In this document: piece after piece, positions 1-27,858 of the stretch
How positions within the stretch are numbered: the first letter of the stretch is position 1
Layout of the letters: every line of letters starts with the position of its first letter
From: Candidatus Hermodarchaeum yapensis
Lineage (GTDB): Archaea > Asgardarchaeota > Hermodarchaeia > Hermodarchaeales > Hermodarchaeaceae
Direction: 5' to 3'
DNA: 64,000 nt
Assembly: GCA_016840405.1 (NCBI GenBank)
Contig: JAEOSK010000004.1
Span: forward strand, 32,001 to 96,000
Made by a program: the position numbers and the translations under genes
Notes under the pieces: model-generated
The model's database searches: none
What the model saw: only the letters and a program-made list of their open reading frames with translations
What the model was told of the DNA's origin: nothing

Positions 1-2
1 TT

Positions 3-10538: not shown

Positions 10539-10559
10539 CCAGCATCACCTGCTACTTAA

Positions 10560-11450: not shown

Positions 11451-11556
11451 CTTTCGAATTACAACAGAACTTCCTCACCAAAGGTCAGAACCTCGTAAAG
11501 CACATTACACACACTTAAAGGCATTCTCAGCGTCATCTTCCAATGGCGAACATCCT

Positions 11557-12525: not shown

Positions 12526-13967
12526 ACATGGATGGGCGGTTGGCGTTTTATCCAAGGCAGAGCTACCTCAATTTGTGCGGCTAGTCGAAAGAGAGTTGCT
12601 TCATCTCCAAAGCGACCCACGAAGTGCGTACCGACTGGTAACCCGTCACTTGTCCAGTGAAGAGGCATTGACATGGCTGGTTGTCCTGTGATGTTTTGGA
12701 TTTGTGTGAAGGGGGTAAATTCACCAGCACGTAAGAAGCCTTTCATGGGATGTTCTGGAGGGCAGTCAAAATAACCCAGGGGAACAGGAGGTTCAATGAG
12801 AGTAGGTGTGAGCCAGATATCATATTCTTGGAAAAAGCGGGCAATATCTCGAGATATTTGCTGGAGCATCATGATTGAAAACAGGTAATCACCAGCATTA
12901 TATTGCCGTCCAATTTTCGCTAACTCCCAGGTGAGAGGTTCAACTTCTTCCTGCAGGACAGGACTTCCACGAAGTTGTTCAATATTCCTGAAGACGGCTG
13001 TCACACCTCCCGACCATAGGGCGACAAAGTTTTGATACATGGCTTGAATGTTAAAATCGGGGTTTGCTTCAACCAACTCATGACCATGTTCAGAACACAA
13101 TGAGACGGCAGTATCAATTGCTTTTACACACTCTTTGTGGGCGACTTCACCCGTTATTGCCTTCGATGTGTAGGCTATACGTATTTTTCCCGGATCCGCT
13201 CCAACTTCTTGGAGGAATGGCCGTTTCGGTGGTGGTGCCCAATAGGGATCACCGACATCTGGACCGGCAGTTGCATCAAGTAAGGCGGCACTATCTCGAA
13301 CGGAACGTGTTAGTGCATGTTCGACGACCAGTCCGCTTTGGATATCACCATGTGTGGGCGCCAAGGGATTGCGGGCCCGTGTGGGTTTTATACCAAATAC
13401 ACCACAACAGGAGGCGGGAATACGGATAGAGCCTCCACCATCACTGGCATGCGCCATTGGTACAATCCCTGCAGCCACCGCGGCTGCAGTTCCTCCACTG
13501 GATCCCCCGGTTGTACGTTCAGTATCCCAGGGATTTCGTGTGGGACCAAAGAATAGCGGTTCAGTGGTTGAAAGGAGACCAAATTCTGGAGTATTAGTTT
13601 TTCCAACGGTAATGAGTCCTGCCCTTTTGAATCTCTTAACAAGTTCACTGTCAAAATCAGGAATGTAATCTTTTAGGGCTGCTGAACCATAACTTAGTCG
13701 AACACCCGCATAAGCAGCCAAGATATCCTTCAACAGGAAAGGAACCCCAGTGAAAGGTCCTTTAGGTAGTTTTCCTTTAGCTGTTTTACGAGCCTCGTCA
13801 AACATGGGGGTGATGACAGCGTTGATTTTTGGATTGATGTGTTCGATGCGTTCAATCACGACCTCTACTAACTCAGAGGGTGTTACTTCTTTTTGGCGAA
13901 CCTTTTCTGCGATAGCCGTAGCATCAAGAGTAGCTAATTCACGAGAGTCGACCATAATCTCACCCAA
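12522..13967 (-). CDS. Amidase signature family protein
   Basis: [14 protein letters not shown] and [14 protein letters not shown] motifs. Confidence 0.95.
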
Positions 13968-14124
13968 ACATCAAGTTTCGCTTTGAATAGGGGACATCCT
14001 ATTCATTATTGTATGGGGATGAATGCACATCTGCTGTTTGCTCGTAGAAGGCTTCTGATGGATGGTTGATTCCTCAGCCTTTAGCAATCACTAAGAATTC
14101 TACCCTGCAGTTTTTGAGAAAAAG

Positions 14125-15066
14125 CTACTCCCGTTCCAATATACCGGTCAAACAGCCAATCCCCCCAGCCGCTTTTGTCACCTCACTGATATTGACCAGA
14201 TGACACTTCAATCCTAGCTCTTCATAAAATCGTTGTGTATTTGGATTTCCACTTGCTGTTAGGATTTTCTTGGGCCCCAATGTGACGAAGTTCATTGATA
14301 GCCCGGTGGCAATTTCAGCTTCATCAGGTGCAAAAAGTGTAGAGAAACCATGTTCCCGTAGTATTTCCAAGGTTGAATCACACAGTCTGCCAGGCCTACA
14401 GATTGCTAGGTCTTGATCTGCAAAGCGAAGGTCCCCCATGAGATGCATAGAACCTGATGGAAGGTCAACTTTTACTGATTCAATTCCCATCTCTTTCAAG
14501 TGACTTGACACCTGCATTGCTCCCTCTTTGTTAGTTCGAAAACCTACGCTAATCATAACCGTGTCAGGGTTGAGCCAAGCCGCATCAGCTCCTTCGAATG
14601 TCCCTTTCCCGTGTATGCTTCTTAAAATGGGTATGCCAAGGCTGGCTAGCCGAGCTGCGACAAATCGTTCCTCTCCTGCGCGGACTGACGAAGCGGGACG
14701 AGAAAGAATCATTCCTTCAGGTGTGGTAAATAACAAATCTGCAACAAACATCAGATTGGGGGGAGGCGTTACATTTGGTTCAAGATACGACACAGTTACA
14801 CCTGAATTTCTGAAGGCTTCTGCAAGGTTATCATGCTGCTTCGTGATTATTTCTATGGATGGAATTTCAATCATCTGCACATCGTCTGGATCTGAGATTC
14901 TCTTAAGCTCAATGCCTGGACGATGAAGAAGCACCTTCCTGAGACGGTTCCACTCATTGTTGACTCCACAGGAACTCCATATGTCCCCAAGTTCTTCTTT
15001 CAACGATCTTTCCCGTGGAGACCAGCCCTTTCCTCCATATGGAGAACCCTTTGACCTGTCTTTCAT
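14125..15066 (-). CDS. Amidinotransferase / dimethylargininase-like (penteine) enzyme
   Basis: LRKVLLHRPG, FEGAD, MHL and C-terminal GGIGCLT with the catalytic Cys. Confidence 0.88.
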   Translation of the reverse strand: MKDRSKGSPYGGKGWSPRERSLKEELGDIWSSCGVNNEWNRLRKVLLHRPGIELKRISDPDDVQMIEIPSIEIITKQHDNLAEAFRNSGVTVSYLEPNVTPPPNLMFVADLLFTTPEGMILSRPASSVRAGEERFVAARLASLGIPILRSIHGKGTFEGADAAWLNPDTVMISVGFRTNKEGAMQVSSHLKEMGIESVKVDLPSGSMHLMGDLRFADQDLAICRPGRLCDSTLEILREHGFSTLFAPDEAEIATGLSMNFVTLGPKKILTASGNPNTQRFYEELGLKCHLVNISEVTKAAGGIGCLTGILERE

Positions 15067-15224
15067 CTAAGACACCACGAATCTTCGAAAACTATGTGAT
15101 GACAAGGGAAGTATCTCCCCTTGCACTACTAATTAGTAAAATTACATTTCTTCTCGTACTTGAAGCTTGACTTGATGTGAAGTTTTTTCAAATTGCAACC
15201 TTATGCCTTAGAACGAGGCCCGAA

Positions 15225-15267
15225 GTTTTTCATGGTTTTATCTGCTTTACTCTCATGTATCGAAGAC
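15225..15267 (+). repeat. Intergenic hairpin-TWTCGAAGAC repeat, copy 1
   Basis: gtttttcatggttttatctgctttactctcatgtatcgaagac; 23 of the first 30 nt are identical to the 18907 copy. Confidence 0.75.
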
Positions 15268-15289
15268 ATAATTACTGCAAATCGCTAAT

Positions 15290-16420
15290 CTAATCGGATA
15301 GGTGGGTCCTGAACCAATCGATGGTATATGGAAGGATTTCGTCTAAGAAGTTGACGCAGCAGTGCTCTCCAGTAGGGTAGAATTTTAGTTCTTTTTTGCC
15401 CTCGGCCCAGTTGATGATGTAGTCAGCGTGTCTTTTTGCATTTGGGATTAGCCTATCTTTTCCTCCTTGAATGAAAAGCAATGGGCGGTCAAGGGGTGGC
15501 GCTTTTTGGATATCGTATTTGGCTAATTCGTCCTGAGCCTCTTCAAGAGTTCCAAACCCCATGACGTGTAAAATGTTTCTGATCCAGAGAGGGTTCATTT
15601 TTTTAATTTGAGAAGGAGGAGGGAGGTATCCTGGTCCGCCGTTTCCTACGGTGCAAGATATTCGGTTTTCGAATGCGGTTACGTAGGGGGCGAGGTATCC
15701 GCCAAAACTCATGCCGTAGGTTCCGATTCGGCTAAGAGCAATATTGTATTCGTTTTTACTCTCAAACCAGTCGATGATTGCACTAACGACGTTGTTGTAA
15801 TCAGGGATCATTTTCATCCTGGACCACATCTCTCCTTGCCCAGGGCCGTCAAAAGCAAAAACATTGAAACCAGCATTCAAGAGAAGATTGCCCAAGTAGT
15901 AGTTTTCAATTTCTTTGATGTTGTCTAAGCCGTTGATTTGAATTATTAGTGGCGTATTAGGTTTTTGAGCGAGTCGAAGGTATCCGGGGATTGAAGTACC
16001 TCGAAAGGGTATCTCGACTCTTTTCGGTCTTTCAACACCATCATAGAGGGCAATAGCTTTTTTGTAAGCGTCCCTTGCCCGTTCTTGGACCGCCACCTTT
16101 TTTGTGAGATCAATAAAGTAGATATGCTGCCCAATGTGAAAACAGCCTGCAGCTTCATGGAACAGCGCCCTAGCCGTAATGGTGTTACTATCAGTAAGTG
16201 CGGTTGTGGCAAGGGTTTCAAGTACCTCTCCTTCTTTGGTCCACTCATCGCACCACATGTAGAAGTTTTTTATTCGTGAGATGACCCTACGAATCCGATC
16301 TAGGCTCACACCACAAATTAGGAACCGGCTGAACCAGTACCTGTAAACACGCTTTTCATTGAATAAGAAACGGTAAAGTATCCTTTCTTTGAGAGATAAT
16401 TTCCCAATTTCGAGTGGCAT
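15290..16420 (-). CDS. Alpha/beta hydrolase (FrsA / 2,6-dihydroxypseudooxynicotine hydrolase-like)
   Basis: GLDNIKE, FDGPGQGE, nucleophile elbow GMSFGGY and GEHCC. Confidence 0.88.
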   Translation of the reverse strand: MPLEIGKLSLKERILYRFLFNEKRVYRYWFSRFLICGVSLDRIRRVISRIKNFYMWCDEWTKEGEVLETLATTALTDSNTITARALFHEAAGCFHIGQHIYFIDLTKKVAVQERARDAYKKAIALYDGVERPKRVEIPFRGTSIPGYLRLAQKPNTPLIIQINGLDNIKEIENYYLGNLLLNAGFNVFAFDGPGQGEMWSRMKMIPDYNNVVSAIIDWFESKNEYNIALSRIGTYGMSFGGYLAPYVTAFENRISCTVGNGGPGYLPPPSQIKKMNPLWIRNILHVMGFGTLEEAQDELAKYDIQKAPPLDRPLLFIQGGKDRLIPNAKRHADYIINWAEGKKELKFYPTGEHCCVNFLDEILPYTIDWFRTHLSD

Positions 16421-16535
16421 AGTTACAAATTGATATCATATATTAATTAAATACTGACTGGAAGCTTGTTAGAGGTAATTCGGTAGTGATTAGAGTCTAT
16501 CTTCTGCAGCATTATATTCTTAAAATGCAGAACCA

Positions 16536-16579
16536 GATTTTTGGTGCTGCATTAACTACATAGATTGAATAACGAAGAC
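16536..16579 (+). repeat. Intergenic hairpin-TWTCGAAGAC repeat, copy 2 (diverged)
   Basis: gatttttggtg...ttgaataacgaagac; the 3' 15 nt match the 27250 copy at 13/15, with the same T-run-to-GAAGAC spacing. Confidence 0.55.
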
Positions 16580-16671
16580 TCACTTTCCTAATTATCTCAA
16601 TCGTTTAAGAAACATCTGCTATCAAGACGGTTTTAATTGCTTTACTAGCGCAATGGTCCTGCTCTTCTTTG

Positions 16672-17241
16672 TCATCTGTATTGTTGGTGGGTTTTGTGGG
16701 GTGCAAATCTCTTGTTAGGAGTTCCTTTCTGAAGTCTTCTTAGCGTCATCAACCATGAAATAACGAAGAAGATTGTTGTTGAGATCATGGCACTTATTGG
16801 AGTCATTAAATGTGCCCATGGTCCTAGAATGGCTTCGCTCATTGCTGTAATTATATTAATCCATCCTGTGGTGATAGTTATAGTCAAATACAGGGAATAG
16901 AAAATCAGGGCACTCATCATCACGTATGTTATAGCTATCCAATTATCTTTTGTCATTCGAACCGCTTCAATTGCGATGATCGCTTCTCGGCCCTGATCAG
17001 TTAGTTCGTATGAACCTTGGTATTTGGCTTCGATGAAGCCAACGAGTTTGTTTAGATGATGGGCGAGGTTCCCACTACTGGATATGCCTAGTTTGCGTTT
17101 TAAGTCGCCAAAGCTTAATGTGGTTTGGCTCAGTACTTGTAGAATTTGTATCCTGGTGGTGTGGGAGATGGCTTCAAAAAGTTCAGCTGTCGCAGAATCT
17201 TTACTTTGTGCAACTTTCCCATTCGTTTCTTGTGAATTCAT
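16672..17241 (-). CDS. ArsR-like winged-helix protein with two C-terminal TM helices
   Basis: LFEAISHTTRIQIL...SGNLAHHLNKL...YELTDQG followed by hydrophobic segments. Confidence 0.82.
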   Translation of the reverse strand: MNSQETNGKVAQSKDSATAELFEAISHTTRIQILQVLSQTTLSFGDLKRKLGISSSGNLAHHLNKLVGFIEAKYQGSYELTDQGREAIIAIEAVRMTKDNWIAITYVMMSALIFYSLYLTITITTGWINIITAMSEAILGPWAHLMTPISAMISTTIFFVISWLMTLRRLQKGTPNKRFAPHKTHQQYR

Positions 17242-17552
17242 CGGGAATTACATTCTCCAATAAATCTCTCAAAACTACACCCTATTTAATTCCTCAGTTC
17301 TTGACCGCTGGTCAATACACCTCGACCAATATTTTTGTCTAAGCTATTGAGTCAATCAAGCACTTTGGTCATGTAAGAAAAACTAGCTAGAGGAAGCCTT
17401 AACTTCTTCAAAAAGCCCAGAAGCGATCAAGTCGGTGTCTGAAAATGAAATAAATTGTAAAAGAGGCAATCCTTCACGGATTGAACCGGAACCAGCGCCT
17501 TTCAGGTTGCACTTCGAACTGGTGGAATGGAATAGATCCAAATCATTGCTTT

Positions 17553-17699
17553 TTAAGGTTAGAGCAAGCGGATTTTCCAGGCGATATACGCCATTCTCTT
17601 GGGTTTCGAAGACAAATATGCCTGATATCGAACTAACGACGTGAAAGATGATTTGTTTCACGTCATATAATCTTGGAAGAAGATGCAATATTGTTAGTG
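17553..17699 (+). repeat. Long copy 3 of the intergenic repeat (core 17571-17613 plus GACGTGAAA/TTTCACGTC hairpin)
   Basis: Aligns end to end with 18889-19047. Perfect 9-bp inverted repeat at 17638-17664. Confidence 0.85.
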
Positions 17700-17777
17700 G
17701 GGTTTTTAGACTAATTTTAAAATCAGGATTTTCTTCAACATTTTCACTTGTGCCTCTGTTCGCTTGTCTTCATCCTG

Positions 17778-18785
17778 TTACTTCTGGAGGGTTAAGCTAT
17801 CAGCATAGGGTGCAAGTGTTTTATCAATTTCAGTCATTTGTTTGTTAGAGAGAGGGCCATATTGGAGTGTTTGGCTGATTTCCTCGACTTGCTTTTCGGT
17901 TTTAAAGCCGGGTATTGGGATGACTTGGGGTCCAAGAGCTAAAAGCCACCCAAGGGCAGCTTGCGTTAAGGTACGTCCGCCTCTGATGAGTATGTCGTGA
18001 ATCATTTCGAGCATCTCAAGTTGTTTCGCTTGTCGTCCTTCTTGCATGTCCCACGCGGCTCGAATGTCGTTAGGTACCTTTGAACTCTTGCTAAATTTTC
18101 CAGTCAGCAGACCCATAGCGAGTGGACCCCGTATGATATTCGCTTGGTCGAATTCTTCACAAAGGGCTAGCATTTCTGTATTGCGCTCAAAGATATTATA
18201 GTGGTATTCCATAGCGGTGCAATGAGGTCCTGCAATAAACGTTCTAGCCCGATCAGGATTGACTGTACTCCACCCATAAGCACGAATCATTCCGTTATCG
18301 ACGAGAGTTTCCATCATAGGTACGAGAGCTTTTGCGAGGTGGGCATCGTACGCATTACAATGAAACAAGTAGAGGTCGATATAGTCGGTGTTAAGGCGTT
18401 GGAGACTGGCTTCACAGGCTTTTCGAATCGATTCGGGTTGGATAAGATCTGGATCACCTAACCAAGTCCTAGTGTCTTCTTCGAACATGCCCCCAAACTT
18501 GGTGCATATGATGACCTCATCTCGGTAACCTTTCAAGGCTTGACCTAGAATTCGTTCACTATGACCGCCTCCATAGGCATCAGCTGTATCAAAGAAATTA
18601 ATACCTAAATTCAGAGCTCTATGGATGGCTTGGATGGAATCGTCGTCGTTCACTTGACCATAACTCAACGCAACTCGTTTACCTTCAGTTTGATACCAAA
18701 GGGGTCCACCAATAGCCCAACAACCGAGTCCTACCGAACTGACTTCAATCCCACTTCGACCTAATTTTCGAGTACGAGTTTTCAT
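17778..18785 (-). CDS. Aldo/keto reductase
   Basis: GLGCWAIGG, FFDTADAYG, SLQRLNTDYIDLY and IPIPG. Start placed at MKTRTRKLG; the upstream in-frame extension runs into the repeat. Confidence 0.93.
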   Translation of the reverse strand: MKTRTRKLGRSGIEVSSVGLGCWAIGGPLWYQTEGKRVALSYGQVNDDDSIQAIHRALNLGINFFDTADAYGGGHSERILGQALKGYRDEVIICTKFGGMFEEDTRTWLGDPDLIQPESIRKACEASLQRLNTDYIDLYLFHCNAYDAHLAKALVPMMETLVDNGMIRAYGWSTVNPDRARTFIAGPHCTAMEYHYNIFERNTEMLALCEEFDQANIIRGPLAMGLLTGKFSKSSKVPNDIRAAWDMQEGRQAKQLEMLEMIHDILIRGGRTLTQAALGWLLALGPQVIPIPGFKTEKQVEEISQTLQYGPLSNKQMTEIDKTLAPYADSLTLQK

Positions 18786-18888
18786 TTTATCATTCTTCAC
18801 GTTTATGTTAATCTGATAACTATCAAACATACATTTTTTCTTATCATTGAACCATCGGCCGGCAATTTCATTAGCACAATATATCTTA

Positions 18889-19047
18889 TTAAGATTAGAG
18901 TAAACGGTTTTTCTTTGATTTATGTGCCATTCTCTCGGGTTTCGAAGACATATGTGCAATTCCGATCAAATGACGTGAAAGATGATTTGGTTCACATTAA
19001 AAACTTCTAAAAATCCTTCGCCGAAGATACTAGCAAAATGCTTAGCG
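18889..19047 (+). repeat. Long copy 4 of the intergenic repeat (core 18907-18949)
   Basis: ttaagattagagtaaacggtttttc...ccattctctcgggtttcgaagaca...gacgtgaaagatgatttggttcac, homologous to 17553-17699. Confidence 0.85.
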
Positions 19048-19060
19048 TGTTCTTCAAATC

Positions 19061-20155
19061 TTATGATTGCAGTTCCATGGTTTCTCTCAGCCTTTTCCCC
19101 CGTAGAGCATTCATTTTGTTCTTGATTAAGCTTAGACCAACAATTTTTCGGTCGAAGGAAATGGTCATTTGAGGTGAAAGATATGTGATGCTAGCACTGC
19201 CAATGGCATCGGGAAATTTTTCGCGATAATTCTCTTCCCACCTAAGATGACTTCCAATGCTATGGTGGTTTCCAAAGAGTAAGATGTTGTATTTTCCATG
19301 GAGGACTTTGTAGCCTATCGGAATGTAAGGATCTTGAACAATCTCACGAATGATCTTTTCTTTAGACTTTTTAATTTCAAATAGTGAATAGGTCAATACA
19401 TAATTTGGTGGTACAAAATAATTAGGAAAACGGCAAATCGGGGTAGCGAGTATATTCTTTTTTAGTAGTGATGCTATCCGCTTTTCAACCGTCTTTCGAT
19501 GTAATCCAGTTTTTTCACATAAAGCAGCGTAGTTGGCTTTAATTCCATTTCCATCAACTAATTGTTTCATGATTTCGATATCGACAATGTCGAGGGGGTG
19601 GCCATTTAAAGTCAGTTCACCCTTCGCTTTGAAATCGCTCTCAATGAGATGAATTCCGGAGTTGGGGTCGTATTTGATTATACGTTGATTCGAAAAATAA
19701 GTCGTGCTCGAATTAAAATTCGCACCTTCCTCAGAGAGCCCATATTGCGATTTTAATATTGAAGGTAATGATTCCATGTAAATTTGGAAGTTTGTGATGT
19801 CTTTATGATAAACGAACAGTATGGTATCATAGTCTCCTTGCCGTGAACTAAAAGCTGCGAATATATATGGATCCTCTTTTACCCAGTTCTCGAATTTTTT
19901 TCGATCCTGTGGCGTTTTCGGTAGGTCTAATTGTAGATCAATGAGTAGCGGATAGTATTGATAAAGACCGGGGAATCTAAAAACGGGGCGATCGAGAATT
20001 TTATGATTAAAGAGTTTTTCAACTTTTTTCCTAATAGTATTTCTGTGTTTACCAAGAGCTCTTGAAAGATTGCTGAGGTTGACATTTACAGCCTCACCAG
20101 ATACCAGACTTTGCATTAGTATCAGATCTTCTTCATTCTTTAGTAAATTTGACAT
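19061..20155 (-). CDS. Tandem (duplicated) Lrp/AsnC-like transcriptional regulator
   Basis: Two HTH+RAM-like units (LSRALGKHRNTIRKKV / LCEKTGLHRKTVEKRI). Divergent from the glutamate dehydrogenase. Confidence 0.8.
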   Translation of the reverse strand: MSNLLKNEEDLILMQSLVSGEAVNVNLSNLSRALGKHRNTIRKKVEKLFNHKILDRPVFRFPGLYQYYPLLIDLQLDLPKTPQDRKKFENWVKEDPYIFAAFSSRQGDYDTILFVYHKDITNFQIYMESLPSILKSQYGLSEEGANFNSSTTYFSNQRIIKYDPNSGIHLIESDFKAKGELTLNGHPLDIVDIEIMKQLVDGNGIKANYAALCEKTGLHRKTVEKRIASLLKKNILATPICRFPNYFVPPNYVLTYSLFEIKKSKEKIIREIVQDPYIPIGYKVLHGKYNILLFGNHHSIGSHLRWEENYREKFPDAIGSASITYLSPQMTISFDRKIVGLSLIKNKMNALRGKRLRETMELQS

Positions 20156-20410
20156 AATTTCACGCACTTTAAGCCAATATTAATATCTTTTTCGTAATAT
20201 TATATCAACTTTGTCATTATTCGTTGTTGATTATTATCTTATCAAATATGAATATTATTTGAACAAATGTGTCAATTATGTCATTTCTCTTTGCATAATA
20301 GTTAATCTATTTTGTATTTTTTCTCAAAAATTTGTAATCTATATTTAATAATATCTATTCTTCAATTTATAATCAGAGCAAACACAAAAATTGTAAAAAA
20401 GGTGTTTATA

Positions 20411-21625
20411 ATGGAACAAACGGTTGTTGATTTACAGGAACAACGAATTTCCGTACTTGATGATTTGCTCGAACAAGTAAACGTTACCAGCCTTCTAGAT
20501 TCTTGGGGACCAGAGAAGGTCATCCAAGTCTATGACCCTAAAATTAAGATGGAGGGGATCCTCGTAATTGATAATACGGCGCGGGGTCCTGGTAAAGGAG
20601 GATTTCGAATTAGCAGTGGTGTCACGCCTACCGAGGTCTTTAAGCTCGCGAGAACAATGACATGGAAATGCGCTTTAGCGGATCTTCCATTTGGCGGAGC
20701 AAAGGGTGCAATTAATGCAGATGCTTATTCGATTGATAAAATTCGATTCGTGAAGACTTTCGCCAGAGCTGTTTCCACTTTTTCACCCGATCAATGGGTG
20801 GCTGCTCCAGACATGAACGTGGGTGAGAAGGAGATTGAAGCGTTCGTTGAAGAAATCGGTAGTATGAAGGCAGCGACGGGGAAACCTGAACGCCTTGGAG
20901 GAATCCCTCATGAACTTGGTACTACAGGGTTTGGAGTGGGTGTATCAATTGAATCCACCTTGGAGGTTCTCAGTAAAACGGTGACAATTCAAGAGACACT
21001 TGAGAACCTAAAAGTCGTCATTCAGGGCTTTGGCAATGTTGGCTCAGAACTCACTAAGTATTTGGCGAATAGAGGCGCGCGGATTGTAGGCATTAGCGAT
21101 TACTGGGGGGCAGCATATAACCCGAAGGGAATCGATGCTTCAAAAGCGTTGAAACACGCCTATGCCTGCGATGAAGCTCATTCTATTAAGGGATGTAAGG
21201 GTGCAACTGCAATTGCCAGAGATGATGTCACTTATTTGAATTGTGATATCTTGGTTCCGGCTGCGATATCAAATGTCATCACAGGCCAAAACGCCTCGAA
21301 AATAAAAGCGAAACTTGTTTTTGAAGCTGCAAACAACCCAACAACCATCATAGCAGAACAGACCCTCTTTAAGAGAGGAGTCTTAGTCATTCCCGATTGT
21401 ATAGTGAATGCGGGTGGGGTTATCGGTTCCTATGTTGAGTATATCGGGGGGAGTCCTGATGAAGCCTTCGCGATGATTGAAGCGAAAATCTCACAAAATA
21501 CACGTAAAGTGCTGAAAAGCGCAATCAACAGCGATACTATCACATTACCACGGGCCATGGCGATGAAGATTGCACAAAAACGCGTTTCACAAGCAATGCA
21601 TCGACGAGCAGGTCAAGAATTATAG
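20411..21625 (+). CDS. gdhA: Glu/Leu/Phe/Val dehydrogenase (glutamate dehydrogenase-like)
   Basis: GPGKGG, MTWKCA, GGAKG, APDMN, QGFGNVG, EAANNP and NAGGVIGSY. AGGTG SD before ATG 20411. Confidence 0.9.
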   Translation: MEQTVVDLQEQRISVLDDLLEQVNVTSLLDSWGPEKVIQVYDPKIKMEGILVIDNTARGPGKGGFRISSGVTPTEVFKLARTMTWKCALADLPFGGAKGAINADAYSIDKIRFVKTFARAVSTFSPDQWVAAPDMNVGEKEIEAFVEEIGSMKAATGKPERLGGIPHELGTTGFGVGVSIESTLEVLSKTVTIQETLENLKVVIQGFGNVGSELTKYLANRGARIVGISDYWGAAYNPKGIDASKALKHAYACDEAHSIKGCKGATAIARDDVTYLNCDILVPAAISNVITGQNASKIKAKLVFEAANNPTTIIAEQTLFKRGVLVIPDCIVNAGGVIGSYVEYIGGSPDEAFAMIEAKISQNTRKVLKSAINSDTITLPRAMAMKIAQKRVSQAMHRRAGQEL

Positions 21626-21652
21626 AGAATAATCTGGAATGGAGGTGAAAAA

Positions 21653-21937
21653 ATGGAAATTAAATTAGTTAGAATCCTACAATGCCTAGATCGATCCTCT
21701 TCGGGTTGTCCGCTAGGTCACATAACACGACATACGAATATCCCTGAGCCATTAAGTCTCCTCGACATCTTGGAAGAAAATAATCTTGTTCAACGCTGTT
21801 CATGTGATGGATGGTCACCTACTGGTCATCCACAATTTGAGATTACATCAAAGGGTTCTCAGAAGCTAAGAGAGATTGAAGCTTCCAGTATTCATATTCC
21901 GATTCGCATTTTAGAAAAAGCTTATGTGGGGCATTAA
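21653..21937 (+). CDS. Small winged-helix-like protein
   Basis: GGAGGTGA SD. The pattern LDILEENNLV...FEITSKG is typical of a wHTH wing. Confidence 0.7.
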   Translation: MEIKLVRILQCLDRSSSGCPLGHITRHTNIPEPLSLLDILEENNLVQRCSCDGWSPTGHPQFEITSKGSQKLREIEASSIHIPIRILEKAYVGH

Positions 21938-22320
21938 TTCAACGCTTCTGAGAAGTGTTCGAAAATACGCATAAGCAGTAGTCTTGGGCGATGAATTATA
22001 TGACGAGGGGGCTGTGGATCCTCCCTTCGGCGAATTGTCAACTACCACTAATTGTAATCTATAGCTTGTATATCGCATCCTGTGATACGGGTTCCTAGCA
22101 ATGGTTGTTGCCATCGCTGGTTGAGCAACGGGAGAGGATTGAAGTCCCCTCAATCATGTTTGTGAGTGAGTTTGATGCTTAGTACTACGCCGCAGCTAGA
22201 ACTGAATTTCTCTCCACCTTGCAATAAAGCACCACATGTAGGACAAGTCGTCAATACTTGTTGGTTGGAAACTCGAGTACGGGGACGGTTTTGAGTGGAT
22301 AGAGACGATTGTGTTAGAGC

Positions 22321-22581
22321 TTACGTGCGGCGATCGTGGATGAATCCTATAACGAAATAAATGGAACAAACGATTAGAAGGAGAACGAGTACCGTGACCG
22401 CGCCAACTATTGCCACAAATGGGTCGAGAAGGGGAGATAGGGACCATGATCCGTAAAATTCAAGGAACAGGTAGAAGCGTATGAAGGCAATAACGATTAC
22501 TACGAGCCTGCATTGACAAAGATAACTCCTGAGCTTTGCGGAGAGAGTTTTATCTTCATTTTCAACACTCAAGTACCCCAC
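22321..22581 (-). CDS. Small putative membrane protein
   Basis: 86-aa ORF with two hydrophobic segments; no family recognised. Confidence 0.4.
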   Translation of the reverse strand: MGYLSVENEDKTLSAKLRSYLCQCRLVVIVIAFIRFYLFLEFYGSWSLSPLLDPFVAIVGAVTVLVLLLIVCSIYFVIGFIHDRRT

Positions 22582-22676
22582 CCAACTTCAAGTTGAAGTG
22601 AAGCCTTCTCATGCGAAATGGTTATGACGTCCTTAGTTAATTGGTGTACGAGATAATTTGTGCAGGAGACTGACTG

Positions 22677-23228
22677 ATGCCCCGACGTCCAAAGTATAAA
22701 ATTGAAAATGTAGTGGCAAGCGTAGAAGTTGTTGCAAAAATCGACCTTAACCTGTTAGTTCGTAAGCAAAAAGATGCGGAATACAACCCTGAACAGTTTC
22801 CAGGGTTGATGCTTCGGATCAAGAATCCGAAGGCCACCATCCTCGTGTTTAGCAGTGGTAAAATGGTGATCACCGGATTACGCAGAGAGACTGAGGCCGA
22901 GGCAGCTGTTGAAAAAGTCGTTAGCAAGATTCGAAAGGCAGGCATTACCGTCACAGGCAAGCCAAAAATCACCATCCAGAATATTGTGGCCAGTGGTGAC
23001 CTTCACAGCCGCATCGATCTGGACCTGGCTCAAATGACGCTGGAACGCTGTCTTTACGAACCCGAAGTCTTTCCCGGACTCATCTACCGAATGAAGACAC
23101 CAAAGGCAGTTTTTCTCATTTTTAGTAGTGGTCGAATTGTGTGTGCTGGCACGAATAAAGAATCCATTACGAAGAAGTCCATCTACCTTCTTGCAGATCA
23201 CCTGCGGGAATTAGGACTCATCGAGTAA
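22677..23228 (+). CDS. tbp: TATA-box binding protein
   Basis: Two TBP repeats: IENVVAS...YNPEQFPGL...FSSGKMVITG and IQNIVAS...YEPEVFPGL...FSSGRIVCAG. Confidence 0.97.
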   Translation: MPRRPKYKIENVVASVEVVAKIDLNLLVRKQKDAEYNPEQFPGLMLRIKNPKATILVFSSGKMVITGLRRETEAEAAVEKVVSKIRKAGITVTGKPKITIQNIVASGDLHSRIDLDLAQMTLERCLYEPEVFPGLIYRMKTPKAVFLIFSSGRIVCAGTNKESITKKSIYLLADHLRELGLIE

Positions 23229-23330
23229 TAGTGCTCCATTGAATGCTCCCACATCGACGTTCTCCACGACTGAAGCCGAGGGAGTTCTCGCTGCCTACTC
23301 TAAAAAAATCAGCAACCGTTGCAGCAGGAC

Positions 23331-23374
23331 ATTTTTCGGGGTGTGATCTGCCCCACGTTACGAATATCGAAGAC
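23331..23374 (+). repeat. Intergenic hairpin-TWTCGAAGAC repeat, copy 5
   Basis: atttttcggggtgtgatctgccccacgttacgaatatcgaagac; shares tttttc, atctgc and tatcgaagac with copy 1. Confidence 0.7.
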
Positions 23375-23455
23375 GTTCCTGAAATGTTTACACCTATGGA
23401 GAATTAATCCACAGCTGCTTATATTAAACCGAGATCTCTGCTCCTTCGGTGATAG

Positions 23456-24226
23456 ATGGTGAACAACAGCATCTGTATCAAAACCGAAGGCTTGACGAAA
23501 ATCTTTGGGTCCGTTCAAGCCATCAGAGAGCTCGATTTAGAGGTGAAATCGGGTAGTCGATTTGGTTTTTTAGGTCCGAATGGGGCTGGAAAGACCACGA
23601 CGGTTCGCATTCTCTCAGGGCTCTTAAAACAGACGAGTGGCACTGGCACGGTCTGTGGATATGACGTATCTACCCAGCGTAATTCGATCAAGGCTGTAAC
23701 GGGTCTTCTCCCCGAAACACCTGGCCTCTACTCCAAGCTTTCTGCCGTGGAGTTCCTCGAGTTTATTGGAGCCCTGAATGGTCGTAATGGAGACTCGCTG
23801 CATCAGCGGATTGACCGCCTTCTGGCCATTCTGGGACTGGAAGGTCGCCAAGAGGATTTACTCGAGTCATATTCGTCTGGGATGAAGCAAAAGGTTCTCA
23901 TGGCTTCGACGTTACTGCATGATCCGCAACTCGTGTTTTTGGATGAACCAACGTCACGTCTCGACCCCGCGGCTTCAGCTCTAGTAAAGGATTTGATACT
24001 CCTTCTCGCCGAGGAAAATGAAACGAGCTTTTTCATCTGCACGCACATTACCAGCTTCGCTGAGGATGTGTGTGATGTAATTGGTATTATCAATGAAGGG
24101 CAATTAGTGATCGTTGATTCGCCTCATCAAATAATTGAATCAACAAAAACGAGGAATCTTGAAGAAGCGTATCTCAAAATCGTCGGTGGCAAGGTCGACC
24201 GCCAGACCTTACTTACATGGAGGTAG
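23456..24226 (+). CDS. ABC transporter ATP-binding protein (multidrug/CcmA-like)
   Basis: GPNGAGKTT, YSSGMKQK and FLDEPT. Confidence 0.95.
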   Translation: MVNNSICIKTEGLTKIFGSVQAIRELDLEVKSGSRFGFLGPNGAGKTTTVRILSGLLKQTSGTGTVCGYDVSTQRNSIKAVTGLLPETPGLYSKLSAVEFLEFIGALNGRNGDSLHQRIDRLLAILGLEGRQEDLLESYSSGMKQKVLMASTLLHDPQLVFLDEPTSRLDPAASALVKDLILLLAEENETSFFICTHITSFAEDVCDVIGIINEGQLVIVDSPHQIIESTKTRNLEEAYLKIVGGKVDRQTLLTWR

Positions 24227-25917
24227 CGGAGATGGAGTGTAGATGGCTTCAGATCGCGAAGGCAGAATTTTTCGTCTTGACTGCGAGATTCAAGGGTCAC
24301 CGGAAACTCTTCATGGGCTTAGTGCTTAGCCTTGGATTGCTCTGGGCAGTTTATTTTGCCCCATTAGTAGTGGGGCTCGTGATGGAGGTCCTTACTCCCA
24401 TAACGCCAATTCGTGTAATTCTCCAAGTCATGTTTCCGGGGCTGATGCGTGCAGTGATGCTATTACTGTGGATGCTTCTCCTTATCATCCCCTTAGGTCA
24501 GGCACTTTCAGAGATTAAGATTGGGCAATGGGAGATTCTCCTTGCCAGTAATGTCACAACCCGCGATATCCTCGTTGGAACCTTTCTTGGCAAGATACCT
24601 AGCTATACGTTGTACGTCCTTGTTTTGGCACCACTCTTACTCTCACCTTTTCTACTTGCCCTTCAGGTCTCGCTTCTAGGGCAGCTACTAATTTACACAA
24701 TCCTTACACTGATGATTCTGACCATTAATTGGCTGTCCAACATCATTTGTGCGGCTCTTCAAGCAAAACTAGGTGAGTCCTCACGCGGTAACGATATCGC
24801 CAAAGCCCTCGCCCTGCTAATGGGTTTGATAGCGATTATTCCAGTATTGGGTCTACAGCTCTTCGCCACTCAGTTCTCTGTGATCTTAGGGCTAAACGTC
24901 TTCTTGGTGTTTCCCTTCACCTGGAGTGCTGACCTCGTTAGCTGGCTCGCTATCACCTTCAACGGTATTAACCTTACTGCTTCACAAATAGCGCACTTTC
25001 AGAATGTCCTGCAATTCGATTTACTCACAAATGGGCTACTCATAGTGGTCTTCGGCGTGGTGTGTATTGGTATTGGTCTCCTATCCGCTGAACGTCTCTT
25101 TACATACCAGATAGGGGCGCGAAGCGAAACGGTGAGAACTGTAAAGCGTGAAAACATCCTTCTACGGGGTCTGCGAAAAATCAGTCCTAGTTCCTTTGGG
25201 TCCCTAGTAGTGACCTGTTTTAAGACCTTCTTCCGACAGGTTCAGAACCTCTCTAAGATCGCGATGGCACTTACCCTTTCAGTGATCCTGCCGTTTCTTG
25301 TGATTCTTGTATACGGACAAGGTTCTCCGATAACGTTGGACTCTCTTTTACCAATAACGGGATATGGTCTGGCATTTATGGGTATCATGGCTTTTAGCGG
25401 AACTTCTTTTCTTGAAAGCAAGGATCAGCTTTGGATGATCCAAGCAGTTCCACGGGGGACGTCACGGTTTGTTAAGGCTCGATTAGTAATAGCAGTTCTC
25501 ATTGCTTTACCGCTTAGTCTTATTCCCACAACTGTATTGACCATCATGATGGGGTTGGAGCTATTCCAATTCTTCTGGCTTTTCGGGTATGGCTACGCCA
25601 TGGTGTGCGGCGCTGCATTGTTCGGCACCGGAATCACAGCCTTGAATCCGAACTATGAGGACATAAAATCACCAGTATATACGACGAGTATGATGATCGC
25701 AAATATGATTTGCTTATTCGTTACTATGGCCAGTCCCTTCATACTCAGTGTCATCACAAGGTTCTTCATCGGCGTCTCTCTTGATACTCTTCTTGTGACA
25801 TGGGGTTTCTTGAGCGCAGGAGTCGGTCGAACAATAATCACAGCAGTATTTCTGCTGGTACTCGGTGCACTAGTTGTGTTGGTGGGAACTCGAAGGCTGG
25901 GTCGACCTGGCACTTAA
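24217..25917 (+). CDS. Putative ABC exporter permease (about 12 TM)
   Basis: Polytopic membrane ORF directly downstream of the ABC ATPase. The true start may be 24232. Confidence 0.8.
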   Translation: MEVAEMECRWLQIAKAEFFVLTARFKGHRKLFMGLVLSLGLLWAVYFAPLVVGLVMEVLTPITPIRVILQVMFPGLMRAVMLLLWMLLLIIPLGQALSEIKIGQWEILLASNVTTRDILVGTFLGKIPSYTLYVLVLAPLLLSPFLLALQVSLLGQLLIYTILTLMILTINWLSNIICAALQAKLGESSRGNDIAKALALLMGLIAIIPVLGLQLFATQFSVILGLNVFLVFPFTWSADLVSWLAITFNGINLTASQIAHFQNVLQFDLLTNGLLIVVFGVVCIGIGLLSAERLFTYQIGARSETVRTVKRENILLRGLRKISPSSFGSLVVTCFKTFFRQVQNLSKIAMALTLSVILPFLVILVYGQGSPITLDSLLPITGYGLAFMGIMAFSGTSFLESKDQLWMIQAVPRGTSRFVKARLVIAVLIALPLSLIPTTVLTIMMGLELFQFFWLFGYGYAMVCGAALFGTGITALNPNYEDIKSPVYTTSMMIANMICLFVTMASPFILSVITRFFIGVSLDTLLVTWGFLSAGVGRTIITAVFLLVLGALVVLVGTRRLGRPGT

Positions 25918-26083
25918 TTTGAATAAGGAGGAACAAAGCAACTTTATACAGGCTACAACTCCTGTAGACTTTGAATCGGTCATGACCTTTCATACCGGTT
26001 CATCGTCTTCAGGAATATACTGGTCAATGAGTGAAATGGATTTCCGAATGAAGCTGTTGGTTGATGGAAGGTGAACGAGTGGA

Positions 26084-26815
26084 TTGAAACAGGCGGAATT
26101 CAGTGCAAACGGTGTACTTAGTAGTCAAAGAGAGCTGTTACCACGGTTGTATCAGAGCCATCGCCTTTTCGTAATTAACTTCTTTGCCTCACTATTGATG
26201 GTTCCTCTCTGGTTTCTCTGGGTAATCTTCTTCGCAGCAGTGATTGCAGAATCTTTTCAGTGGTTTCTCCTAATAACTGCGCCAATATGGATTGCAATAC
26301 CACTTACTGTTTTTATTTTTGGATATAGCGGGAAAGCATTTTTTGTTTATATGCGATCTGCAAAACACTTCTTAGATAATGCAAAAGTGGATGTCAATGC
26401 CTCTAGGACTGCTGAAGATTTCACTACGTATATGAATCTCCTTTTCCCAGTTCTTCTCCCTTCGATGACATCGACACCCAATTCTACGCAGCAAGAACAG
26501 GAGCGAATCCACAAAATAATTCGAAACTTAAAGAGGGCACCGATCATAGAAGGGGCGATTCTTGGAATCCTTATCTTTAGCTTTGTCAGTTTCTTCGTCA
26601 GACATCCGTATCTCCTTCCCCGCCTTCTTCTTACACTGATTATTCCATTTCTCTGTTTCAACTTCGCTATTATGGTAATCCGACTTGGAATTTTCCTTAG
26701 GTGGCGACAATATGTTAGCCGCTGGCTGAATCTTTATGACAGCCTCACCACTTGGCAGGCAAATCTTGAGTTAAAAATCCAACAAAACGCGAACAGTATC
26801 CAGAGGGAGATTTGA
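26084..26815 (+). CDS. Hypothetical membrane protein (about 4 TM)
   Basis: Hydrophobic 243-aa ORF overlapping the next gene. Confidence 0.65.
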   Translation: MKQAEFSANGVLSSQRELLPRLYQSHRLFVINFFASLLMVPLWFLWVIFFAAVIAESFQWFLLITAPIWIAIPLTVFIFGYSGKAFFVYMRSAKHFLDNAKVDVNASRTAEDFTTYMNLLFPVLLPSMTSTPNSTQQEQERIHKIIRNLKRAPIIEGAILGILIFSFVSFFVRHPYLLPRLLLTLIIPFLCFNFAIMVIRLGIFLRWRQYVSRWLNLYDSLTTWQANLELKIQQNANSIQREI

Positions 26816-27255
26816 TGCCAAAAACATCTACCGCCTCTGATAAAACAAGTTACAAGGCACCTCGTCGAGGGAAATTCGAGATATGGTCAGCATTATTAGA
26901 AGCGTGTCTTCGAATCCCGCGAACACAAAGTTGGCTCATGCGGAAAGTTGGCCTCAACACAGCTACCGCCAAAGAAGCACTGAGTAGTCTCACCAGGGGA
27001 AGACTTCTTGAGCAAGAAAGTGAACCCAAAGTGGGTATTTTTGAATATAAGACCACTGAGAAAGGAAAAGCCGCTCTAGCCCAATATTACCAACTAATTA
27101 CATCCTTCTTCGGAACCAGCCACAAAAGCCGAGTGAAGCAATATATGATCGTCTTGCTTTTCGCCCTCTCCTCTTGCTTTGTCTATGGGCAAATCGTTTT
27201 TCGGCAAGTGTACAGTTTCCTTGCAGGGGGAGACTCGGATCATACTCCTATTTGA
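26812..27255 (+). CDS. Archaeal winged-helix (HTH_45-like) regulator
   Basis: RRGKFEIWSALLEAC...LMRKVGLN...YKTTEKG. Confidence 0.8.
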   Translation: MMPKTSTASDKTSYKAPRRGKFEIWSALLEACLRIPRTQSWLMRKVGLNTATAKEALSSLTRGRLLEQESEPKVGIFEYKTTEKGKAALAQYYQLITSFFGTSHKSRVKQYMIVLLFALSSCFVYGQIVFRQVYSFLAGGDSDHTPI

Positions 27256-27294
27256 AAAATAAATTTTCGTGCAATTCTTTTGAATTTCGAAGAC
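27250..27294 (+). repeat. Intergenic hairpin-TWTCGAAGAC repeat, copy 6
   Basis: gcaattcttttgaatttcgaagac is 20/24 identical to 17590-17613. It abuts the GNAT stop codon. Confidence 0.75.
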
Positions 27295-27858
27295 TTACTT
27301 TTCGTTGCTTTTTGCCATGCTTTTTTCGTAAAAACAGCTCTCTTTGTGTGTAGCTGCGAGCTTGTAACCACAAGAGTCGTATAATATGCGTGCGGCTTTA
27401 TTCGATTCAATTACGTGTAGCCCGATGAGTTTCAGACCCTCACTCCTTGTCCACTCTTCGATTTTTTCCAAGAGTAATTTTGCCAGACCCTGTCTGCGAA
27501 ATCTAAGCACAACATGCAGATTATAAATCCACGTTAATGGTTCCTTAAATCGCCAAAATGGCCCACGATGGCACACCCATACTAGCCCAACTGGTTGTCC
27601 TTCACTGGTTTCTCCAATGAACACCACATGATCTGGACTAGACATATCCACCGGATCGTTCTTATCGAATTCCTCATATTTTCGCTTTATTTCTTCTTCT
27701 GATAAGGAATCTGCGTCTGTGAGTGTCCCTTTATATGATTCAAGTTGACAGTAGTCGAAGAACGCTTGATCCGTTTGGCGATTCCATTCTCGAATATGAA
27801 ATTTCAAAGAGAGACCTTCTTCTGCATTGATTTCTATGTGTTCGTGTATCTTATCCAT
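27295..27858 (-). CDS. GNAT family acetyltransferase
   Basis: FRRQGLAKLLL acetyl-CoA motif and NKAARILYDSCGY. Confidence 0.9.
   Translation of the reverse strand: MDKIHEHIEINAEEGLSLKFHIREWNRQTDQAFFDYCQLESYKGTLTDADSLSEEEIKRKYEEFDKNDPVDMSSPDHVVFIGETSEGQPVGLVWVCHRGPFWRFKEPLTWIYNLHVVLRFRRQGLAKLLLEKIEEWTRSEGLKLIGLHVIESNKAARILYDSCGYKLAATHKESCFYEKSMAKSNEK

Follow-up and report, generated by a model that had tools for sequence, protein, structure and literature searches.

What separates the accessory genes of an Asgard archaeon when the same short repeat, always read in the same direction, lies in the gaps between genes that are otherwise unrelated? In this study, we address this question for a 64,000-nucleotide stretch of Candidatus Hermodarchaeum yapensis (contig JAEOSK010000004.1, positions 32,001 to 96,000), hereafter the window, which carries six copies of such a repeat. 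A preliminary description of the window had proposed that the repeats are recombination sites of a cassette system distinct from attC, whose enzyme is encoded outside the window. Integrons are the textbook modular gene-capture machine and are defined by the integrase IntI and the attC site, and we found no published description of a cassette array in Hermodarchaeota. We propose that the repeats are probably the junction sites of a mobile gene-cassette array which undergoes site-specific recombination at a 7-bp overlap, CGAAGAC. As far as sequence comparison can tell, the array splits a long stretch of the chromosome into swappable accessory-gene cassettes in one genus of Hermodarchaeota.

Structure of the element

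All six copies lie on the + strand with the coordinates and 3' ends first reported for them (Table 1), and the surrounding gene layout is as it had been described, now on the basis of Pfam matches. The element itself is not the 43- to 45-nt unit of the preliminary description. It is a composite of about 130 nt in which a variable stem and a T-run are followed by box L, TTTCGAAGAC and box R (ATAnnTGCnATT), the last directly following the core, and box L is a direct repeat of box R located 30 nt upstream. In about half of the copies a hairpin with a conserved 11-bp stem stands 20-50 nt further on. A sequence logo built from 102 copies places the T-run, expected about 43 nt upstream, at -41 to -37, and the consensus of these copies lacks the RYYYAAC and GTTRRRY ends of attC, as had been stated. 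The hairpin that had been placed in the 43-nt stretch did not hold up: this stretch folds no better than shuffled sequence, and the hairpin that is well supported, with covariation, lies 3' of GAAGAC (the G·T versus A·C counts, 102 versus 74, are too close to decide its strand). The upstream stem ("hairpin 1") is weakly better than shuffles (38% versus 24% at ≤ -6 kcal/mol), and whole elements treated as one structure are no better than shuffles, with only local hairpins forming.

All 19 copies of the source genome have an identical 7-nt core. The right arm is conserved, with 83 of 115 copies matching at least five of seven positions; at the cassette junctions the inverted left arm is at chance level and box L is conserved. 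The 8-mer TCGAAGAC occurs seven times in the window versus 2.2 expected, and the extended similarity captured by a six-copy profile is the stronger signal. The T-run and a TTAT box look like an archaeal terminator and a weak TATA element. A confident match to a known attC, IS end or terminator family was to have counted against a new system; no match was found to attC features or an IS end, and an Rfam scan of the array matched no family. Readings of the element as a sigma-54 promoter, a C/D-box sRNA or a leaderless ORF were judged by eye and dropped because the spacing or frames did not fit.

Table 1. Element copies and the segments that they delimit, in window coordinates
Feature	Position	Strand	Details
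Element-free stretch, right part	1..15267		belongs to 24.6 kb, contig C58 22672-47267
Element copy 1	15195..15329	+	core CGAAGAC 15261-15267; junction of 24.6-kb left segment and alpha/beta-hydrolase cassette
Alpha/beta hydrolase cassette	15268..16579	-	gene 15290-16420; Pfam; between cores 1 and 2
Element copy 2	16507..16641	+	core 16573-16579; AA in place of TT before core
ArsR-type winged-helix protein cassette	16580..17613	-	gene 16672-17241; Pfam
Element copy 3, full-length form	17541..17675	+	core 17607-17613; box R 17614-17628; downstream hairpin 17636-17666; covariance model 111.7 bits
Aldo-keto reductase cassette	17614..18949	-	gene 17778-18959, true start probably further in; Pfam
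Element copy 4, full-length form	18877..19011	+	core 18943-18949; downstream hairpin 18969-18998; covariance model 112 bits
Multi-gene cassette	18950..23374		HTH regulator 19061-20167 (-); glutamate dehydrogenase 20312-21625 (+); TBP paralogue 22677-23228 (+); Pfam
Element copy 5	23302..23436	+	core 23368-23374; left border of ABC-exporter cassette
ABC exporter cassette, four genes	23375..27294	+	genes 23456-27255; Pfam
Element copy 6	27222..27356	+	core 27288-27294; weakest copy; last element on contig C58

Occurrence and orientation across genomes

A search with the six-copy profile found 16 copies on contig C58 and three on contig C9 of the source genome, 19 of 19 on the + strand; neither the profile nor a covariance model detected the element elsewhere in the 2.7-Mb assembly, two of whose 77 contigs carry copies. 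The covariance model found the element in 13 of the 14 other genomes of the genus, in none of the four genomes searched of a sister genus, and gave one borderline match among 42 further Asgard genomes. The count of copies is confined to the contigs fetched from 10 genomes, each of a different species of the genus, and comes to 116 copies on 18 contigs, with no contig of mixed orientation. Random scatter in both orientations would have spoken against a cassette system; these scans of the genome and its relatives instead showed copies confined to arrays and strictly co-oriented, and on all contigs examined the sites are direct repeats, none of them inverted. The ORFs between copies face both ways (108 + versus 89 - relative to the element). 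The units have a median size of 1.5 kb and often hold a single gene, and there are at least 19-33 junctions per genome. Since about a quarter of the cores in the sampled genomes have a single-base change, and since some cassette genes abut without a detectable element between them, part of the array may be fossil.

Cassette content and order across species

The cargo resembles that of integrons and comprises toxin-antitoxin pairs as well as genes for efflux pumps and transporters, for regulators and for small modifying enzymes. It also includes small GTPases of the Ras family, LRR proteins and the TBP paralogue of the window, one of three TBP loci in the genome, to which a TBP on an array contig of another genome (G014) is 90% identical. 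No element was detected in the 24.6-kb stretch to the left of copy 1, whose transport and metabolism genes encode peptide ABC permeases, hydantoinase B, LysE, 3-hydroxyacyl-CoA dehydrogenase, amidase and an amidinotransferase-like protein.

Gene order conserved across the sites would likewise have told against the preliminary description; it is not conserved between species. Orthologous cassettes occur in different orders and keep their orientation relative to the element, in every case for orthologues of at least 70% amino-acid identity, and the apparent inversions are paralogues at 35-45% identity. In 12 comparisons of orthologous cassettes the alignment begins either within the cassette or 6-9 nt ahead of the end of the upstream core, and it ends 1-3 nt past the downstream core or runs into the shared consensus of box R and the hairpin. 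The CitMHS cassette, for example, is 96.9% identical over 1939 nt, ending at +1, and the ABC exporter block matches, at 91% identity across 3.9 kb, a block of genome G012 that has different neighbours there, with homology from 14 nt past core 5 to 1 nt past core 6. Moreover, none of the 11 cross-genome pairs of elements with left halves at least 80% identical has right halves that reach 80%, and none of the 13 pairs with similar right halves has similar left halves. Judged from these alignments, the left half of an element goes with the gene on its left and the right half with the gene on its right.

Other metagenomes contain alternative junctions at the same place. A contig of run X6 departs from the reference exactly after position 15267 (copy 1) and one of run X9 exactly after 16579 (copy 2), in both cases after GAAGAC, and the left halves of the two copies are there joined to a different right half. 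Each joint rests on a single low-depth contig whose shorter side is 31 nt, and the parts of the window left uncovered in runs X7-X9 were not used as evidence. Homology breaks and metagenome junctions alike map to the core, where the preliminary description had proposed to look for them, and they support its proposal of recombination sites of a non-attC cassette system. The core variants gave too few informative pairs to place the crossover within the 7-mer.

A two-armed site beside a recombinase gene

Of all inverted pairs of box motifs in the genome the best one, with the same 7-nt spacer as in the cassettes, is the sequence ATGGCATATAA-CGAAGAC-ATATATGCCAAT, which has 9-bp perfect inverted repeats, arms of about 11 bp and a 7-nt centre, and which we refer to as the primary site. 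In the source genome, 23 nt separate it from the end of contig C35. In genome G010 and on metagenome contig L079 it stands 55 nt upstream of a gene for a 359-aa tyrosine recombinase, which in G010 occupies positions 288-1367 of contig C24, and on contig L097 it precedes the first codons of the same gene, where the contig ends. In total, four assemblies place the site about 55 nt upstream of this XerA-like recombinase gene or its first codons, and in G005 it is joined to the right half of a cassette instead. The gene on the left flank is common to G000, G010, G005 and L079. In G000 and G010 the integrase gene, not cassettes, comes after the site, and no contig links the site physically to an array. 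The candidate integrase gene is on the same strand as the site, reads away from it, and was found with it in only two of the 15 genomes of the genus (for G000, the upstream 53 nt only) and on two metagenome contigs.

The candidate matches PF00589 (Phage_integrase) at E = 2e-21 and has the conserved R...HxxR...Y motifs; its alignment to the XerA structure 5HXY spans GARISEL, HLFRH and YTHL. A tyrosine stands before the catalytic tyrosine, where histidine or tryptophan is usual, and the protein, which resembles XerA, carries a zinc ribbon at its C terminus. The model that it fits best is that of archaeal XerA, where it reaches 118 bits and stays under the model's cut-off of 220 bits. Distant homologues (33-62% identity) lack the site and resemble ordinary integrases of small integrated elements, and repeat searches around them found no cassette arrays.

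The expectation of an enzyme encoded outside the window has so far been met by a candidate, namely this tyrosine recombinase with its palindromic site, whose action on the sites is inferred. No HUH/Y1 transposase was found in the genome, nor any member of the serine recombinase families, and the one IS110 transposase was rejected as the array enzyme, being alone on a 2.8-kb contig with no link to an array. A second tyrosine recombinase, on contig C53, is strain-specific (elsewhere only a short fragment was found, in G006) and is therefore not the array enzyme. Exact-match scans of metagenomes and genomes with the left arm and core returned mostly bacterial chance matches, the real ones being L097, G010 and G005 only; of two near-matches in G007, one was a coding-sequence coincidence and the other an ordinary junction. 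A palindrome with similar arms at C67:4200-4223 was set aside as a chance match because it lies inside a conserved gene, presumably that of cysteinyl-tRNA synthetase (read from the translation alone).

Discussion

The restricted and co-oriented distribution, the breakpoints at the core, the shuffling between species, the junctions in other metagenomes and the palindromic site beside an integrase gene were all computed from the data. The reading that fits them best, and which we hold to be likely, is that of a tyrosine-recombinase cassette-capture array, with the link to the enzyme inferred. Under this model a cassette begins just past the core with box R and often the conserved hairpin, carries one or a few accessory genes in either orientation, and terminates in a variable stem, a T-run, box L and TTTCGAAGAC; joined in a circle, its ends would restore a single site of about 130 nt. 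The two-armed primary site adjoins a conserved chromosomal flank, with the XerA-like recombinase gene 55 nt downstream. The recombinase is predicted to bind box R, and at the primary site the left arm as well, and to cut at the edges of the 7-bp overlap before strand exchange. Cassettes might thereby be released as circles between adjacent cores, and the primary site or a different core might take them up again; the circular intermediates are inferred, no circular cassette having been observed, and so is what box L, the T-run and the hairpin do. Because only the right arm of a cassette is canonical, the two-armed site would stay at the flank after each integration, which would leave internal junctions with a degenerate left arm.

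It is possible, though we think it unlikely, that the array is the same and the catalyst is the host XerA, with cassettes that exploit Xer in the manner of IMEX or dif modules and a neighbouring integrase that belongs to an unrelated element sharing the core. XerA is present in the source genome and is the sole tyrosine recombinase found in most genomes of the genus, the candidate integrase is absent from most bins, and the primary site has a Xer/dif-like geometry of 11-bp arms around a 7-bp centre. Against this stand the uniqueness of the palindromic site in the genome and its position in four assemblies, directly in front of the dedicated integrase gene or the first codons of that gene; the fact that no separate dif-like site with similar arms was found, apart from the palindrome on C67; and the genomes of the sister genus, which have recombinase matches yet no element. 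It is very doubtful that the element is instead a transcription module, a terminator joined to a promoter or operator, common to the parts of an accessory island that is reshuffled by homologous or microhomology recombination without a dedicated recombinase. Its resemblance to a terminator and TATA element is what would be expected of such a module. Zero copies in the remaining ~2.6 Mb are not, nor are an orientation that stays constant though the genes face both ways (108 +, 89 -), a core invariant in 19 of 19 copies with halves that segregate independently, or a palindromic two-armed version beside an integrase gene. We note that short-homology recombination would also break at the sole strongly conserved stretch.

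The two remaining explanations seem to us scarcely tenable. A MITE, REP or PATE-like mobile repeat inserted many times in a single orientation could account for the short size, the local hairpins and a strand bias comparable to that of IS200/IS605-derived repeats; yet this element does not travel in one piece (each half belongs to the cassette on its side), is not dispersed and has neither terminal inverted repeats nor target duplications, and the genome is without a HUH (Y1) transposase. A classical integron array that has lost its integrase (CALIN) deserves mention in view of the reported enrichment of integrons in Asgard archaea and of CALINs in Asgard MAGs (Ghaly et al., 2022; PMC9668308), and the co-oriented layout and integron-like cargo agree with it. 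However, the element lacks the attC ends and does not fold as one imperfect palindrome, the cassette genes have no common orientation, and the candidate integrase scores only 51 bits against the integron-integrase model TIGR02249 (cut-off 265) and 39 bits against PRK15417 (cut-off 435).

We give about even chances to a broader proposal: that the array is an independently evolved archaeal capture platform, built from a XerA-like integrase of its own, a primary site with two arms and dozens of cassettes that lack an integrase and carry composite 130-nt sites. Such a platform would move accessory genes within and between species of an Asgard genus, among them paralogues of eukaryote-like genes (Ras-family GTPases, LRR proteins and TBP). 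Integron-like behaviour achieved with a Xer-like double-armed core, a composite site and another recombinase would mean that the strategy arose more than once, and would place it in the archaeal group closest to eukaryotes. It would also offer a concrete and testable route by which Asgard archaea could rapidly gain, lose and exchange accessory genes, and the array would account for the breaking of metagenome assemblies in these regions. Should the integrase be active, its short and well-defined site could serve as a recombination tool.

With integrons the array shares a long series of co-oriented sites between unrelated accessory genes, toxin-antitoxin pairs among them, cassette boundaries within a short invariant core, a site divided between neighbouring cassettes that would re-form on circularisation, and a distinct primary site adjoining a tyrosine recombinase gene. 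Unlike attC, the site lacks R''/R' cores and does not fold into one long palindrome; it is built on CGAAGAC with one canonical arm and a direct-repeat box. The recombinase is XerA-like with a zinc ribbon rather than IntI, and its gene, on the same strand as the primary site, points away from it. Multi-gene cassettes are common, and with ORFs in both directions the integron hallmark of mostly promoterless, co-oriented cassette genes behind a platform promoter is unmet.

IMEX such as the CTX and TLC phages and the gonococcal genetic island accrete in tandem at dif. They resemble the present system in a core site of about 11-bp inverted arms around a 6-8-bp centre, in an incoming element whose site has only one good arm, and in the outcome of successive integrations, namely hybrid sites that all face one way, with a single fully functional site kept at the end. 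Here the two-arm geometry is satisfied at the primary site only, the cassette junctions retaining the right arm alone. Unlike IMEX, the cassettes number in the dozens and carry neither replication nor phage genes, a dedicated integrase gene lies beside the site, and neither identity of the site with dif nor action of XerA has been shown. The pdif (dif) modules of Acinetobacter plasmids are likewise small accessory modules with Xer-like sites in varied contexts, carrying toxin-antitoxin and resistance-type genes, whereas their sites are inverted and plasmid-borne and those described here are all direct repeats in a chromosomal array. ICE/IME/CIME arrays and the composite SCC islands of staphylococci at orfX target a tRNA or the 3' end of a gene, which was not seen here, and differ in scale from an array of at least 19-33 junctions per genome, 1.5-kb median units and a composite 130-nt site; they are alike in that units without an integrase have the same att core as an element that carries one, and that units bounded by direct repeats accumulate at one chromosomal site.

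Cassette junctions

Judged from sequence comparison alone, the repeated elements with the core CGAAGAC are cassette junctions. When contigs were oriented by the element and their ORFs then clustered, the same gene families were found in different species beside different neighbours, and orthologues with amino-acid identity of 70% or more were in no case turned around relative to the element. Apparent cassette inversions were rejected, the pairs involved being paralogues of 35-45% identity. In flank alignments homology stops at the core. The CitMHS cassettes of the source genome (G000) and of another genome of the genus (G010) are 96.9% identical over 1939 nt, with the alignment ending 1 nt past the downstream core and unrelated sequence upstream of the left core; the left half preceding the G010 cassette is the one that follows, in G000 (contig C9) and in a third genome (G014), a three-gene module of a B12-binding-domain protein, an octopine-type dehydrogenase and an ArsR regulator. 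In all 12 cassette comparisons the alignment starts either at the shared core, 6-9 nt short of where the upstream core ends, or further inside the cassette, and ends at +1 to +3 from the end of GAAGAC or about 50 nt into the shared consensus box R and hairpin. Among inter-genome element pairs, 11 had left halves at least 80% identical, the right half reaching that level in none, and 13 had similar right halves, again without a single similar left half; no junction was conserved between species. The crossover is confined to TCGAAGACA, positions -7 to +1. The preliminary description had suggested that these may be recombination or cleavage sites of a gene-cassette system; it asked whether breakpoints fall at the GAAGAC end, and named conserved gene order across the sites as a refutation. 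Both checks came out in its favour, and its reading is supported by the core breakpoints, the segregation of the halves and the polarity.

Contigs of four public metagenome runs were also aligned to window 13500-28500. One contig (run X6) matches copy 1 through its left half as far as 15267, where GAAGAC ends, and then switches to another box R (17 other letters) and a hairpin; another (run X9) diverges after 16579, in copy 2, and has nearly the same right half as the X6 contig. Both break at the predicted base, which is modest evidence, since each joint rests on one contig of low depth whose shorter side spans 31 nt.

Anatomy and distribution of the element

The source MAG is archaeal (2.7 Mb, 86% complete, 44.7% G+C). 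The window corresponds to positions 32001-96000 of its contig C58 and contains a gene for a TATA-binding protein (TBP). On re-checking, all six window copies were in place, on the + strand and with the 3' ends first quoted for them. A profile built from them, with one iteration, was run over all G000 contigs and found 16 copies on contig C58 (contig positions 4.8-59.3 kb, i.e. up to window 27342) and three on C9, all 19 on the + strand, and none on the other 75 contigs; a covariance model (R1) recovered the identical set. The repeat was thus real, but longer than the 43-45 nt initially assigned to it, as seen in a logo of 102 copies (Table). Box R is a direct repeat of box L at an offset of 30 nt. 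The hairpin, too, had been misplaced: the stretch from the T-run to GAAGAC has no folding advantage over shuffled sequence, and only a weak tendency to fold is seen in the upstream stem, but about half of the copies carry a hairpin downstream of GAAGAC. There, 80% of cells are paired versus 32-53% in slid controls, and 65 double changes were counted versus 29 ± 4.5 in shuffles, a covariation that supports this hairpin. In one G000 element CAAATCCTCC, the reverse complement, replaces the loop GATGATTTG, and the hairpin module looks as if flipped. The core is invariant in 19/19 G000 copies, a single deviating value at copy 6 in the variant count being an anchoring slip; outside G000, about one quarter of the cores have single-base variants. 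Tyrosine recombinases need an invariant overlap between partner sites, and we infer that the invariance of CGAAGAC fits this requirement.

Parts of the element (positions relative to the end of GAAGAC) and other loci named in the text
Feature	Location	Strand	Remark
Upstream stem	5' part of element	+	poorly conserved (logo)
T-run	-41 to -37	+	logo, 102 copies
Box L (gTTaT..GC.atT)	-30 to -16	+	logo, 102 copies
TTTCGAAGAC	-9 to 0	+	logo, 102 copies
Box R (aTA..TGC.aTtt.T)	+1 to +15	+	logo, 102 copies
31-nt hairpin ATGAYGTGAAA-GATGATTTG-TTTCACRTCAT	about +20 to +50	+	about half of copies
Element with reverse-complemented loop	contig C58:13928-13976 (L001)
TBP gene in array	window 22677-23228	+
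Ras/Arf-family GTPases and LRR protein	C58:1129-1653 (L001); C9:6567-8059 (L003); window 29275-30123		in or beside arrays
1619-aa ORF	window 4858-9717	-	no Pfam match
1076-aa ORF	contig C58:19186-22416	-	no Pfam match; sole occupant of its cassette
Two-armed site	C35:7214-7244
Second palindrome, GCACTATAGTGC(GAAA)	C35:7160-7190; L079 about 430-450		about 55 nt upstream of primary site
Direct copies of second palindrome, about 30 nt	G010 C24 (L057 reverse strand), about 1270 and 4380 of first 6000 nt
24-nt direct repeats	L082: 4827-4850 and 11654-11677		88% identical
Integrase fragments	G008 C51 (L128): 7246-7628 and 667-773	-	49-59% identity to candidate
Tyrosine recombinase gene	C53:4215-5312 (L037)		strain-specific; at contig end
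IS110-family (RNA-guided) transposase	C7:1734-2771 (L038)		single; on 2.8-kb contig

With R1, the element is detected in 13 of the 14 remaining genomes of the genus and in none of the 4 searched from a sister genus; 42 other Asgard genomes gave one borderline match (E = 0.009). The 116 copies counted on 18 fetched contigs from 10 genomes, G000 included, are strictly co-oriented on each contig (mixed orientation on 0/18). Median spacing on these contigs is 1.5 kb, 54 of the 98 inter-element intervals contain just one ORF of 90 aa or more, and ORF direction relative to the element is mixed (108 + vs 89 -). Array contigs are often short, as expected if repeats or strain variation break assemblies.

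Genes lying between elements encode transporters (a CDF efflux protein, CitMHS and MFS transporters, an ABC exporter), ArsR-type regulators, enzymes (methyltransferases, a luciferase-like oxidoreductase, octopine-type dehydrogenases, a GNAT acetyltransferase, an aldo-keto reductase, an alpha/beta hydrolase), two toxin-antitoxin-type pairs (a UPF0175-family gene with an unannotated neighbour, and a nucleotidyltransferase with HepT), a TBP paralogue, and eukaryote-like Ras-family GTPases and an LRR protein. Several cargo proteins have no Pfam match, and a recombinase gene is absent from the arrays examined. The array TBP gene is one of three genomic TBP loci (the others are on C76 and C47). A second species also has a TBP, 90% identical, on one of its array contigs, so that a paralogue of a basal transcription factor is present in cassette-array contigs of two species. 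The Ras/Arf small GTPases and the LRR protein, eukaryote-like hallmarks of Asgard archaea, are met again in the arrays of other species.

A two-armed site and a candidate integrase

Scanning G000 for inverted pairs of the box motif gave one outstanding match, gATGGCATATAA-CGAAGAC-ATATATGCCAAt on contig C35, in which 9-bp perfect inverted arms flank the same 7-nt core, 23 nt from the end of a 7.3-kb contig. This site recurs in G010 (contig C24), where it and the 53 nt shared with G000 (98% identical) run on into a gene for a 359-aa protein that starts 55 nt after the site. This protein has a SAM-like N-terminal domain, a Phage_integrase catalytic domain and a C-terminal zinc-ribbon-like tail, and was aligned to the XerA structure 5HXY over the motifs GARISEL, HLFRH and YTHL; its top model is archaeal XerA, with a score below that model's cut-off, and it lies far below the cut-offs of integron-integrase models. 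One metagenome contig (L079) carries the same flank gene, site and integrase (87% identical), and a second (L097) joins G000's upstream sequence to the site and to the initial codons of the integrase gene, which is itself missing from the G000 bin. An enzyme encoded outside the window had been suspected, and a candidate gene does lie there, its action on the sites being only inferred.

We propose that a circular cassette with a right arm only would integrate into the two-armed (primary) site, leaving the left arm at the flank and giving all internal junctions a degenerate left arm. G005, another genome of the genus, shows the product expected from such an integration: the flank gene has a homologue there, and downstream of it a left arm and core adjoin box R and a hairpin, as in the right half of a typical cassette. 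Of 115 copies, 83 have a right arm that agrees at 5 or more of 7 positions, while the inverted left arm does no better than chance, and these arm statistics fit one-armed-cassette integration.

The second palindrome near the primary site is also conserved. Its two direct copies in G010 flank a 3.1-kb insertion encoding a PQQ-type beta-propeller protein and a GYD-domain protein, and on this pattern it may be another insertion site.

Catalyst and alternative origins of the breakpoints

Integrase and site were found together in only 2 of the genus's 15 genomes and on two metagenome contigs, always on short contigs or contig ends; more distant integrase homologues lack the site. No contig was found that physically links the primary site to an array, and the order of site then integrase in G000 and G010 means that the gene may be either the first array unit or a separate element with the same core. 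XerA, encoded by most genomes of the genus, remains an alternative to the neighbouring integrase as catalyst. Short-homology recombination, without any dedicated recombinase, would also put breakpoints at the most conserved stretch, where they do fall. It would leave unexplained, however, why the element is so restricted in distribution and strictly polar, why its geometry is one-armed, and why a palindromic site lies beside an integrase.

Other recombinase genes were seen. In the metagenome contig L082, a distant integrase homologue occupies the left end of a 6.8-kb segment with direct repeats on either side, which by its sequence looks like an ordinary integrated element. In another genome, G008, integrase fragments lie on the same contig as an element, 6.5 kb to its left and in the same orientation as it. 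The C53 tyrosine recombinase gene probably belongs to a separate integrated element; a GC-rich stretch near its start is reminiscent of a tRNA 3' end, an assumption from resemblance only. G000 also has an IS110-family transposase gene (Table).

Comparison with known systems

Integrons of the attC type are reported from Asgard MAGs (Ghaly et al., 2022; PMC9668308), and in the literature we found no CGAAGAC-type or Xer-like cassette array for Asgard archaea. Integrons are closest in function and layout; however, the attC structure, when tested, fails on the elements, as had been anticipated, the candidate enzyme is not an IntI-type integrase, and the array does not consist of co-oriented promoterless cassettes. 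In site geometry and one-good-arm logic, the closest systems are Xer-exploiting elements accreting at dif and, likewise, cis-mobilisable elements piling up beside an integrase-bearing element, whereas pdif modules differ in that their flanking sites are inverted. We place the array with site-specific-recombination cassette arrays.
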